Assembly: GCA_036504595.1 (NCBI GenBank)
Contig: DASXUX010000022.1
Span: forward strand, 18,104-82,103
DNA from: Planctomycetota bacterium
GTDB taxonomy: Bacteria > Planctomycetota > SZUA-567 > H5-PLA8
Reading direction: 5' to 3'
DNA length: 64,000 nucleotides
The notes under the pieces: model-generated
What the model saw: only the letters and a program-made list of their open reading frames with translations
What the model was told of the DNA's origin: nothing
Database searches by the model: none
Made by a program: the position numbers and the translations under genes
In this document: piece after piece, positions 15,159-16,670 of the stretch
Layout: the number at the start of each line of letters is the position of its first letter
How positions within the stretch are numbered: the stretch's first letter is position 1

Positions 15159-16570
15159 ACGGCGCGGAAACCGCTCCCTCCGAGCGCTCATCGGCGCCTC
15201 CACTCAAAAACGGAGGGCGTCGGCGCATTGTCAGCATCATCTTCATTCTCGTGCTGATCGCGGCAGCGGTTGTCGGCTGGCGGTACTACGAATATTCGCG
15301 CAACTACGAGTCTACCGATGATGCCTTTATCGATGGCCACGTCGTTCCGGTCAGCGCGCGCATTGCCGGACACGTCGCGCGCGTCCTGATCGACGACAAC
15401 CAGCATCTCGAAGCCGGCCAGCTTCTGCTGGAAATCGACCCACGGGATTACCAGGCGATTGTCGATCAGAAGAAAGCCGCGCTGGCCAATCTTGAAGCCA
15501 AACAGAAATCCGCCGAAAGCACGGCCGCGCAAATCGAAATCACCGCCACCGCCGGACTGACGCAAGCGCAAGCCGGGGTGGAAATCGCCAAAGCCAACGT
15601 CGAAGCCGCTCAGGCCGCCGTCAGCTCCTGCCGCCAGCGATTGGAGCAGGCTCAGGCCGGCGTGACCGTCGCCCAAGCCACTATCGCTCAGGCCAATGCC
15701 CAGGTCGGCGCGTCCGACGCGACCGTGATCAAGAACGAACAGGACGTGGAACGCTACCGGATCGCGATGGCCAGCAACGCCGCCACGCGGCAGCAATTTG
15801 AGTACGCCGTCGCCGCGGCCAACGTCTCCAAGGCCGAACTGGAAGCCAATCGCAAAGCCGTCGCAGCGGCCGAAGCCAAACTGACCGAGGCGCAGGCCGC
15901 GCAGCACGGCGCGCAAGCCGATGTGCAGCAGTACGAGGCGCAAGTTGGGCAGACGAAAGCCTCGCTGGGCGAGTCGCTCGCCCGGCTGGAAGCCGCCAAG
16001 TCCGCGCCGCAGCAAATTGCCGTCGCGCGGTCCGCCGCTCAAGCCGCCGCCGCCGATGTGACGCAAGCCAAAGCCACGCTGGTGCAAGCCGAACTCAATC
16101 TCTCGTACACAGTGATCAAGGCATCTGACCCGGGTCACGTCACACGCAAAATGGTCGAACCCGGCCAGTATGTTCAGCCTGGGCAGACACTGCTTGCCGT
16201 GGTTCCTTCCAACGTCTGGATCACAGCGAATTACAAAGAGACGCAGCTTACGAATATGAAGCCCGGCGACGCCGTGGACGTCACCGTTGATGCGTATCCG
16301 GGAAAGAAATTCAAGGCGCACGTGGACAGCATCCAGCGTGGCACCGGCGCGCGCTTCAGTCTTCTGCCGCCCGAAAACGCCACCGGAAACTACGTCAAAG
16401 TCGTCCAGCGTGTGCCGGTAAAGATCGTGTTCGATGCACCGGCCGCGCGGGATTTTCTGCTCGCCCCGGGGATGTCGGTCGTGCCCGAAGTGAACGTGAA
16501 AGCGCACGACGCTTCTGCGACGACAAGATCGAAAATCGAAATCCGAAACTCGAAGGAAACGGCAAACTGA
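15155..16570 (+). CDS. emrA: HlyD/EmrA-family membrane fusion protein
   Basis: One N-terminal TM, a long coiled-coil, a beta-barrel C-terminus. 4-nt overlap with tetR. Confidence 0.85.
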   Translation: MNGAETAPSERSSAPPLKNGGRRRIVSIIFILVLIAAAVVGWRYYEYSRNYESTDDAFIDGHVVPVSARIAGHVARVLIDDNQHLEAGQLLLEIDPRDYQAIVDQKKAALANLEAKQKSAESTAAQIEITATAGLTQAQAGVEIAKANVEAAQAAVSSCRQRLEQAQAGVTVAQATIAQANAQVGASDATVIKNEQDVERYRIAMASNAATRQQFEYAVAAANVSKAELEANRKAVAAAEAKLTEAQAAQHGAQADVQQYEAQVGQTKASLGESLARLEAAKSAPQQIAVARSAAQAAAADVTQAKATLVQAELNLSYTVIKASDPGHVTRKMVEPGQYVQPGQTLLAVVPSNVWITANYKETQLTNMKPGDAVDVTVDAYPGKKFKAHVDSIQRGTGARFSLLPPENATGNYVKVVQRVPVKIVFDAPAARDFLLAPGMSVVPEVNVKAHDASATTRSKIEIRNSKETAN

Positions 16571-16670
16571 AAACAGAAGGTTGACCGCTCTCGGGCCCGC
16601 TTCGGTTTGCCGTTTTGTCTTTTGCCGTTTCGCTGTTTCCTTCGGATTTCGAGCTTCGGATTTCGGATTT
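16527..16670. promoter_or_regulatory. long imperfect inverted repeat built from TCGAAAT heptamers, spanning the last 14 codons of emrA and the emrA-emrB spacer
   Basis: Left arm gatcgaaaatcgaaatccgaaactcgaaggaaacggcaaa. Right arm tttgccgtttcgctgtttccttcggatttcgagcttcggatttcggattt. Confidence 0.7.

Follow-up and report, generated by a model that had tools for sequence, protein, structure and literature searches.

A palindromic repeat of a dispersed family probably entered a once-tight emrA-emrB junction in a Planctomycetota genome

The window analyzed here is a stretch of 64,000 nucleotides (nt) from a Planctomycetota metagenome assembly (GCA_036504595.1, contig DASXUX010000022.1, positions 18,104 to 82,103), with a GC content of 60.6%. 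It carries, on the plus strand, emrA (15155-16570), which encodes an HlyD-type adaptor, and emrB (16679-18271), which encodes an efflux pump of the Pfam family MFS_1. An inverted repeat (16527-16670) occupies the junction of the two genes and reaches into the end of emrA. The original prediction, made from the letters of the window, had described repeat hairpins overlapping coding ends here, at an ATP-binding cassette (ABC) ATPase gene and at a BNR-like gene. All three lie where it had placed them, and they are long hairpins with arms of 7-9-nt periodicity. We describe each of them, with emphasis on the emrA-emrB element, and then weigh how they could have arisen.

The start of emrA overlaps the stop of the preceding TetR/CecR gene by 4 nt, an overlap still present in the window. 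At its other end emrA closes with T T R S K I E I R N S K E T A N and a TGA stop (16568-16570), and emrB begins, without a Shine-Dalgarno sequence, at an ATG 8 nt past the element. The repeat between them is imperfect (arms 16530-16577 and 16618-16665), with a better-matched outer pair (16532-16554 and 16648-16670) that is 87% complementary. RNA covering 16527-16672 is predicted to form a single long stem (-55.9 kcal/mol, z = -3.25), a stability equalled by 2 of 200 shuffles. The element consists of two inverted copies of a ~45-nt unit (...GTTTCGGATTTCGNGCTTCGGATTTCGGATTT) flanking a variable core. On the plus strand, a T-rich right arm (16618-16670) ends in the canonical terminus of the family described below, TTCGAGCTTCGGATTTCGGATTT (16648-16670, an exact pattern match). 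The A-rich left arm (16527-16577), whose reverse complement was aligned with the right arm and with other family members, is a degenerate inverted copy and one heptamer shorter. Within the core and apex (16578-16617), positions 16592-16609 are predicted to form a small G+C stem. The left arm includes the emrA stop and the 13-14 codons before it; the earlier claim that this arm encodes the last 14 residues of EmrA is thus right in substance, but the string quoted for them has 15 letters. The junction probably gained ~175 nt that fold strongly, and neither reading frame is broken; an assembly made with a second assembler (Logan, SRR11794808) is 100% identical across the hairpin over 5192 bp, although it probably derives from the same sample.

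Proteins of the HlyD/EmrA family usually end in ...PGMSVVPEVKVK and a stop, a point that corresponds in the window to K449 (codon 16499-16501, plus strand). Exactly at the residue matching K449, 110 of 120 EmrA homologs terminate, and tblastn matches at 80 loci extend no further than query residues 446-449. The window gene has a lineage-specific extension of 22 codons (AHDASATTRSKIEIRNSKETAN) plus the TGA stop (16502-16570, plus strand), so that the full protein ends in ...VNVKAHDASATTRSKIEIRNSKETAN. The first nine codons of the extension are flanking sequence and the last 13 are left arm. This 22-residue tail has no counterpart in any of the 120 homologs, and the tails of two other long-tailed homologs (P0068 and P0114) are unrelated to it in sequence. 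No close EmrA ortholog for comparison of the tail was found in 5.8 billion proteins, the next match being 56% identical. The comparison of C-termini with orthologs called for by the original prediction turned up no ortholog that has the same tail but lacks a repeat.

The spacing of the two genes was compared across 68 homologous loci. A 4-nt ATGA overlap is present in 42/68 and the largest gap is +89 nt, whereas the window has a 108-nt spacer and 66 nt of extra coding sequence. At the closest syntenic locus (L081; TetR-emrA-emrB, with an EmrA 56% identical), emrB starts on the emrA stop in an ATGA overlap, and GAGGTGA stands upstream of the emrB ATG, inside emrA; the corresponding codons of the window read GAAGTGA. 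Relatives' genes thus overlap by 4 nt or are closely spaced, and EmrA normally ends at K449, from which we infer that the tail represents read-through into inserted DNA. A read-through of 22 codons would be about the length expected in random sequence, and the tail is probably disordered and neutral.

To define the family, we searched metagenome contigs for the 23-nt pattern TTCGNGCTTCGGATTTCGGATTT, which represents the end of the unit, and obtained matches in at least 120 contigs from many projects. Common to them is an irregular order of units, TTCGGAT TTCGNGC TTCGGAT TTCGGAT TT, with GTTTCGGAT in front. The ~45-nt unit, with ends AAATCCG... and ...CGGATTT, is T-rich and not self-complementary. 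Among the matches listed, host GC extends from 0.28 to 0.70, and conservation runs ~20 nt further inward (...GGATTTGTTTCGGAT), with a sharp outer edge and a TT every 7 nt beyond. These matches include 129 right arms, 71 of which have an inverted left arm (AAATCCGAAATCCGAAGC...) within 400 nt, and 66 distinct full elements (median 135 nt). Conservation of the inverted termini covers ~40-45 nt, and solo arms are common. Full elements fold well (median z = -4.2); their cores are unrelated between copies and not consistently palindromic (median z = -0.9), so the hairpin comes from the termini. These data establish the family: it has conserved outer ends with sharp boundaries and cores that vary, and the right arm in the window is a canonical one. 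The earlier proposal that repeat expansion produced the emrA-emrB hairpin fits poorly with the occurrence of this dispersed palindrome in no fewer than 120 unrelated contigs of several phyla.

Exact look-up of neighboring proteins named some of the hosts: Candidatus Portnoybacteria, Chisholmbacteria, candidate division WOR-1, a Clostridia metagenome-assembled genome (MAG), the Olavius algarvensis Delta-1 symbiont (Desulfobacterota; a full element), a Verrucomicrobiae MAG and a Binatia-like contig. A Planctomycetes MAG (L088) carries, at an unrelated locus (6356-6385), a sequence with 1 mismatch in 31 nt to the window's right arm. The 64-kb window itself holds one copy, and three contigs (L129, L141, and L186) have 2-3 matches each to the terminal 14-mer. 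Rfam gave no match for the element in the window, and canonical elements searched at permissive thresholds matched nothing but generic hairpins of miRNA precursors, far below threshold. No match for the element was obtained by BLAST against plasmids and phages, and only nine matches occur in 2.9 million viral contigs; thus, the element is not phage-borne. A full-text literature search found no paper containing its sequence. As for its position relative to genes, 26 of 89 converging open reading frames (ORFs), called on metagenome contigs and unvalidated, end inside an element; that the family prefers gene 3' ends was considered and is not claimed, as the ORF classes are ambiguous (27 3' ends, 31 5' ends, and 47 'both'). 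Separately, heptamer hairpins of the CAAAGAG/CTCTTTG and AAGAGCA/TGCTCTT types are nested in the cores of AAATCCG-type elements in two contigs (L104 and L135), where the apex of an older hairpin may be the site at which a newer one inserts or arises.

The second hairpin (AATGATG/CATCATT; 26348-26447, minus strand) lies at the junction between the gene for a ribose-type sugar ABC ATPase (26429-28069, minus strand) and that for its permease, identified by Pfam. Its arms (26348-26386 and 26409-26447) are 85% complementary, and the predicted fold has -42.2 kcal/mol (z = -4.7). The ATPase ends in ...GTMMNAE, with its stop at 26429-26431, and the 5' arm of the transcript (26409-26447) contains its last 5-6 codons and the stop, in agreement with the earlier statement that this arm encodes TMMNAE. 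That repeats remodel protein termini, as also proposed, is consistent with the EmrA tail and with the signal peptide described below, but not with the ATPase: beyond the conserved ...LRxAIG its tail has 10 residues, against 1-43 (median 12) in homologs, and nothing has been remodeled beyond normal family variation. In the closest ATPase homolog (L084, 63% identity) the ATPase-permease gap measures 182 nt and is filled (5644-5782) by two copies of a different 74-nt unit with hairpins of its own; this junction is independently colonized in that lineage. The window ATPase is 536-546 amino acids (aa) long, compared with 500-520 aa in most homologs, and a stretch at ~27530-27600 (minus strand), GQGEPHGQPTANRGCPWHNTPR, was judged by eye, without alignment, to be an internal insertion.

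The third hairpin (ACCACAGAG...CTCTGTGGT; 62348-62458, plus strand) is predicted to reach -54 to -61 kcal/mol (z = -6.3 to -7.3; for the span 62348-62458, -54.4 kcal/mol and z = -7.3). Its purine-rich 5' arm occupies the 45-nt spacer past the upstream stop (62340-62342), and the ATG of the BNR-like gene (62388), which opens with MNKKSTPILPSLCVLCVLCVLCG, falls in the apical part of the stem. The label 'BNR' is weak, as the Pfam scores are just under threshold (Sortilin-Vps10 32.4 vs. 33; BNR 22 vs. 27). N-terminal signal peptides of equal length in homologs (e.g., P0241), together with alignment of the mature RIVWxPELRVK, make this ATG credible. In the 3' arm, the array CCTCTGTGT (3.9 copies, 62420-62454) encodes SLCVLCVLCVLCG, a run of LCV repeats that the original prediction had noticed within the signal peptide, and with it the hydrophobic core of that peptide, LCVLCVLCVLCG. 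Compared with the homologous N-termini, the repeat has replaced the hydrophobic core without lengthening the signal peptide. The coding arm has a period of 9, in frame, and its non-coding partner a period of 8, which fits the reported rule that simple repeats surviving in genes are multiples of three (PMC4679880). The initiation region is indeed buried by the inverted partner, as had been suggested: in the partition-function model the start codon has an unpaired probability of ~0.5 in the apical region. This burial is structurally real, and a role in translation is only a candidate. Hairpins with the same ends are found at two other junctions in L088 (9878-10000 and 12252-12376), neither of them covering a start codon, and one is found in a MAG of the Geobacteraceae (L058).

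All three hairpins lie in a genome rich in short-period repeats. Tandem Repeats Finder detects 28 period-7 arrays in the window, compared with 2.0 in dinucleotide shuffles and, over 1.4 Mb of 81 other genomes, a rate of 1.9 per 64 kb, an enrichment of ~14-fold. Nearly all of them lie at gene ends or in the ~12% of the window that is intergenic, and nearly every locus has its own unit. Seven arrays form long hairpins, with z from -3.3 to -7.3. They include a GCTCTT/AAGAGC hairpin in the MoxR2-DUF58 spacer (51877-51966, plus strand; z = -5.3), which extends from stop +4 to ATG -4 without coding overlap; a GGTCTGG/CCAGACC hairpin in the spacer up to the ATG of a GATase1-like gene (58861-58954, plus strand; z = -6.4); and a GGTATCG/CCCCATA hairpin in the divergent region between the ABC ATPase gene and recD2 (28117-28207; z = -5.4 on the plus and -4.6 on the minus strand), which means that this class of hairpin is not confined to intercistronic sites. 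An AGTTCTT array with a partial inverted partner directly follows the emrB stop (18276-18338, plus strand; z = -4.6). For the AATGATG, AAGAGC, and CCAGAC hairpins, one or no relative was matched in the comparison DNA. A raw sliding-window census of minimum free energy was rejected as a count of hairpins, since coding DNA folds equally well at 60% GC.

A protein search with MoxR retrieved relatives 78-92% identical, all from Planctomycetota MAGs, with a MoxR-DUF58-BatA operon syntenic with that of the window. The junctions of this operon are compact in one relative (L092; -4 to 36 nt) and 100-390 nt long in five others (L087-L091) and the window. The swollen junctions hold heptamer or nonamer arrays and hairpins, with different units at orthologous junctions; at the MoxR2-DUF58 junction, L089 has a diverged counterpart of the window's hairpin and L092 is compact. 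We also observed that in L091 a (AGGACTG)x10 array (11022-11091) and an inverted (CTCAGTC)x4.3 array (11572-11601) stand on either side of an inserted gene for a 125-aa protein (23S_rRNA_IVP family, PF05635) between MoxR2 and DUF58. Between the two MoxR paralogs of the window lies a DUF4272 gene (50196-50816, plus strand) preceded by an AGTCTGG array (50150-50190); in the relatives this gap is 14-276 nt and no gene was called in it.

Repeats also touch coding sequence elsewhere in the window. A DUF4175-like protein of 1282 aa contains a charged low-complexity linker encoded by repeats (58328-58482, plus strand) of period 8 (GACGGGGA, 4.2 copies), period 7 (GGAGGCA, 4.4 copies), and period 15. 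The end of a tRNA synthetase gene (...VVSGQ) has (GGTCAGT)x2.3 at 19003-19020 covering the stop codon, and a GGGTGAG array (33096-33119) overlaps the last codons of an AraC-type gene (33106-34023).

We consider it reasonably probable that the emrA-emrB feature is a palindromic repeat of a dispersed family that entered a once-tight junction and displaced the emrA stop, that the other two cases belong to the same phenomenon of the clade, and that any effect on expression is a by-product. Under this scenario, 16527-16670 would be a non-autonomous palindromic repeat of ~145 nt, composed of two inverted, heptamer-periodic units of ~45 nt (consensus ...GGATTTGTTTCGGATTTCGTGCTTCGGATTTCGGATTT) and an unconserved core. 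Together with a ~25-nt flank, it would have entered the tight junction, after which the emrA frame would run 22 codons, through the flank and 13 left-arm codons, to the first in-frame TGA, and the old Shine-Dalgarno sequence inside the end of emrA would have decayed from GAGGTG to GAAGTG. The ABC and BNR-like cases would reflect a Planctomycetota clade whose junctions are swollen by fast-turnover 7-9-nt arrays and hairpins. Such repeat DNA would persist only at tolerant protein sites, namely variable C-terminal tails, signal-peptide cores, and charged linkers (such as 58328-58482), and in the BNR-like signal peptide only an in-frame period of 9 nt would survive. Local slippage and correction between arms could afterwards reshape each copy, which would explain why arms differ in unit-sized steps and why the hairpins of the window and L089 have diverged at orthologous sites. 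Candidate by-products for expression are cutting of the long stem by RNase III, a shifted emrA/emrB stoichiometry, and inefficient initiation of the BNR-like gene.

Several observations weigh against this scenario. The nearest EmrA homolog is only 56% identical, so the insertion is reconstructed over a long evolutionary distance. Target-site duplications are not a feature of the family: 60/71 elements have no boundary-anchored direct repeat of at least 2 nt, and the remainder have 2-3 nt, at chance level. (AGCGC at 16501-16505 and 16671-16675 was considered as such a duplication and rejected, as it is not reproduced across the family.) No transposase was found in the window or among the families listed for 150 ORFs next to elements, and no family recurs in more than two of these ORFs. 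Several named hosts have a solo arm of only ~23-32 nt, and part of the phylum range could reflect convergent heptamer arrays. In ~2.3 Mb of comparison DNA nothing else matches the AATGATG hairpin, which may well be a purely local product. Finally, the genes behind intercistronic hairpins (emrB, the permease gene, the gene at 58954, and the BNR-like gene) lack a clear Shine-Dalgarno sequence, which the first genes of operons have, and two hairpins (51877-51966 and 58861-58954) span exactly the interval from stop to start, leaving room for a role in coupling. The missing Shine-Dalgarno sequences may be inherited from a formerly coupled arrangement.

A purely local origin, in which slippage expands heptamers in place, template switching copies the array in inverted orientation, and the growing hairpin extends into coding ends, seems unlikely to us as an account of the emrA-emrB element, although much of the repeat background speaks for it. 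The window is ~14-fold enriched in period-7 arrays with a different unit at nearly every locus; single-arm arrays coexist with paired ones; the two arms of a hairpin are unequal by entire units (one heptamer is missing from the left arm at emrA, and the BNR-like arms have periods of 8 and 9); the MoxR2-DUF58 hairpins of the window and L089 share an AAGAGC motif at periods of 7 and 8; and the ABC hairpin stands alone in the comparison DNA. Moreover, the literature ascribes heptanucleotide richness to slippage (Mrazek 2007, summarized in PMC4679880 and PMC4692102). Expansion in place does not explain, however, why one irregular order of units is common to at least 120 contigs of very different GC and phylum. 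The ancestral emrA/emrB junction was overlapping, so there was no spacer to expand, and hairpins of the ACCACAGAG type are present elsewhere, at other L088 loci and in the Geobacteraceae MAG.

The hairpins could alternatively be selected cis-regulatory RNAs, such as an attenuator or a processing site controlling the ratio of emrA to emrB, a stem bringing the upstream stop close to the downstream start for reinitiation, or an occluder of the BNR-like start. The stems are all far more stable than shuffles (z = -3.3 to -7.3), two of them extend exactly from stop +4 to the next ATG, and the BNR-like initiation region sits inside a stem of -54 to -61 kcal/mol; the missing Shine-Dalgarno sequences of the genes that follow would also be compatible with regulation by structure. 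There is also a precedent in the Correia element of the mtrCDE operon, which is cut by RNase III and alters expression (PMC10969869). The attenuation-like control that the original prediction placed between emrA and emrB does not emerge from our scans and models. No terminator site was found at the 3' base of any long hairpin in 14000-30000, nor a U-tract, and the total of terminator-like sites is not above that of shuffles (19 vs. 14.9). The only match of the scan within the emrA-emrB element is its 6-pair apex stem. The long stem itself ends in GGAUUU followed by AGCGCGG. To model unmasking, we computed partition functions with the 5' part held single-stranded through stop +13 nt, mimicking a terminating ribosome. 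Opening the 5' arm in this way brought no gain in accessibility of the start: the unpaired probability fell from 0.64 to 0.01 for emrB and from 0.79 to 0.00 for the permease gene, because the freed T-rich arm pairs downstream. In these models the intact emrA-emrB hairpin is self-contained and no alternative fold exposes emrB, so that neither attenuation nor unmasking is supported by the modeling. The same class of hairpin is also found in a divergent promoter region (28117-28207) and past the last genes of operons, and the family occurs as solo arms and beside unrelated genes. In the MoxR operon, L092 has compact junctions, and orthologous junctions differ with no structure conserved at the site. 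We therefore regard selected regulation as a rather improbable explanation of the hairpins.

Misassembly of palindromic or low-complexity sequence is very improbable: the source is a metagenome assembly, in which hairpins and tandem repeats are hard to resolve, but the Logan contig (probably from the same sample) is identical, the unit is present in at least 120 contigs from many projects, including one assigned by exact protein match to the O. algarvensis Delta-1 symbiont, and the flanking reading frames are intact.

Further features of the window lie apart from these hairpins. A palindrome, GCGCAATCC-N4-GGATTGCG(C), occurs in four copies (30539-30560, ~30849-30872, 33048-33068, and ~35553-35590), two of them directly after a TAG stop; its core, CAATCCG, is similar to the emrA-emrB element's AAATCCG unit and is repeated in tandem at 30618-30636 and 61229-61257. 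Another family of REP-like hairpins, CCCCTCCCC...GGGGAGGGG, is intergenic (~18880-18920, 22575-22615, 33076-33105, and 45228-45262). A 1-kb region upstream of a Glu/Gln-tRNA synthetase gene (20617-21659) has no convincing gene and contains three copies of CTGTAAA(A/G)AAGTGCACATGTG, with a palindromic core GTGCACATGTGCAC. A c-di-AMP riboswitch (RF00379; 30679-30822, plus strand; 81.8 bits vs. a gathering score of 38), the only Rfam match in the window, lies upstream of an SPFH/Band_7 gene (30849-33047). Two adjacent serpin genes (11998-13200 and 13203-14399, plus strand) are 2 nt apart.

The emrA-emrB family was compared with known classes of repeats. [quoted passage not shown] Their size (under ~500 nt, non-coding) and terminal inverted repeats are those of a MITE. 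On mobility, the emrA/emrB junction is empty in 68 relatives, all of them distant. Correia stems are known to be cleaved by RNase III, with an effect on the mtrCDE efflux-pump operon (PMC10969869). The family differs in lacking a target-site duplication and, in the window and 150 neighboring ORFs, a cognate transposase, in its heptamer-periodic low-complexity termini, in the frequency of solo arms, and in spanning phyla rather than one genus. Rickettsia palindromic elements (RPEs) are likewise palindromes of ~150 nt in coding genes that contribute peptide segments at tolerated positions (PMC10969869). However, RPEs lie mostly in frame inside the genes of one genus, whereas the overlaps in the window are at termini (a C-terminal tail, a signal peptide) and most copies are intergenic.

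With the repetitive extragenic palindromes (REPs) and bacterial interspersed mosaic elements (BIMEs) of enterobacteria, the family shares dispersal as extragenic palindromes, often between the cistrons of transporter operons, the occurrence of single units and inverted pairs, and the absence of target-site duplications. REP elements are linked to REP-associated tyrosine transposases (RAYTs) and stabilize upstream cistrons in ABC transporter operons. Y1_Tnp, the RAYT family, had no match in the window or among the families listed for the 150 neighboring ORFs. REP units are G+C-rich, 20-40 nt long, individually palindromic, and tagged with GTAG or CGTC (PMC3733652), unlike the ~45-nt, T- or A-rich unit of the emrA-emrB family, which is not self-complementary. 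Lacking both the target-site duplication of MITEs and the unit that defines REPs, the family is best filed as a variant and a member of neither class.

Heptanucleotide long simple sequence repeats (LSSRs), such as the short tandemly repeated repetitive (STRR) sequences of cyanobacteria, GGGAATC of Xanthomonas, and TAACTGA of Beggiatoaceae, resemble the window's arrays in being intergenic, tandem, and lineage-enriched, with multiples of three favored inside genes, and occasionally occur as inverted pairs (PMC4692102). With 28 period-7 arrays where 2.0 are expected, the window belongs among such genomes, although those have one or few units and the window a dozen. The emrA-emrB element does not fit their expansion by slippage in place, given its order of units in at least 120 contigs; the best-defined hairpin of the window is a conserved, irregular, cross-phylum sequence and not a simple array. 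Translational coupling is suggested by the ancestral emrA/emrB overlap, ATGA being the classic layout for termination-reinitiation (PMC10666635), and a stem that includes the upstream stop could in principle link the cistrons, but our modeling yields no unmasking. Intrinsic terminators have a G+C-rich stem directly followed by a U-tract, and attenuators alternate between mutually exclusive structures; the scan showed no such site at the 3' base of the long hairpins in 14000-30000, and the models no alternative fold that exposes emrB.

A bolder possibility, which we hold only tentatively, is that the AAATCCG/CGGATTT unit is an undescribed cross-phylum hairpin element. If so, a sequence of ~45 nt would be constant in the candidate phyla radiation (CPR), WOR-1, Clostridia, Desulfobacterota, Verrucomicrobiota, and Planctomycetota at 28-70% GC, and it would either have a new mode of mobility, for example through a trans-acting enzyme that recognizes heptad-repeat single-stranded arms, or bind a conserved host factor. 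Its survival in once-coupled junctions, next to genes without Shine-Dalgarno sequences, would then mean that ribosomes reinitiate across the stem.

The EmrA tail and the LCVLCV signal peptide would thus be footprints of repeat DNA at tolerant parts of proteins and not adaptations, and would offer a modest, datable case in which non-coding DNA gave rise to new peptide sequence. The emrA-emrB operon may also serve as a natural test case for how much translational coupling efflux pumps need. The more interesting lead is the conserved 45-nt unit itself, which spans phyla and GC contents without recognizable mobility machinery and is not explained by current models of MITEs or REPs.

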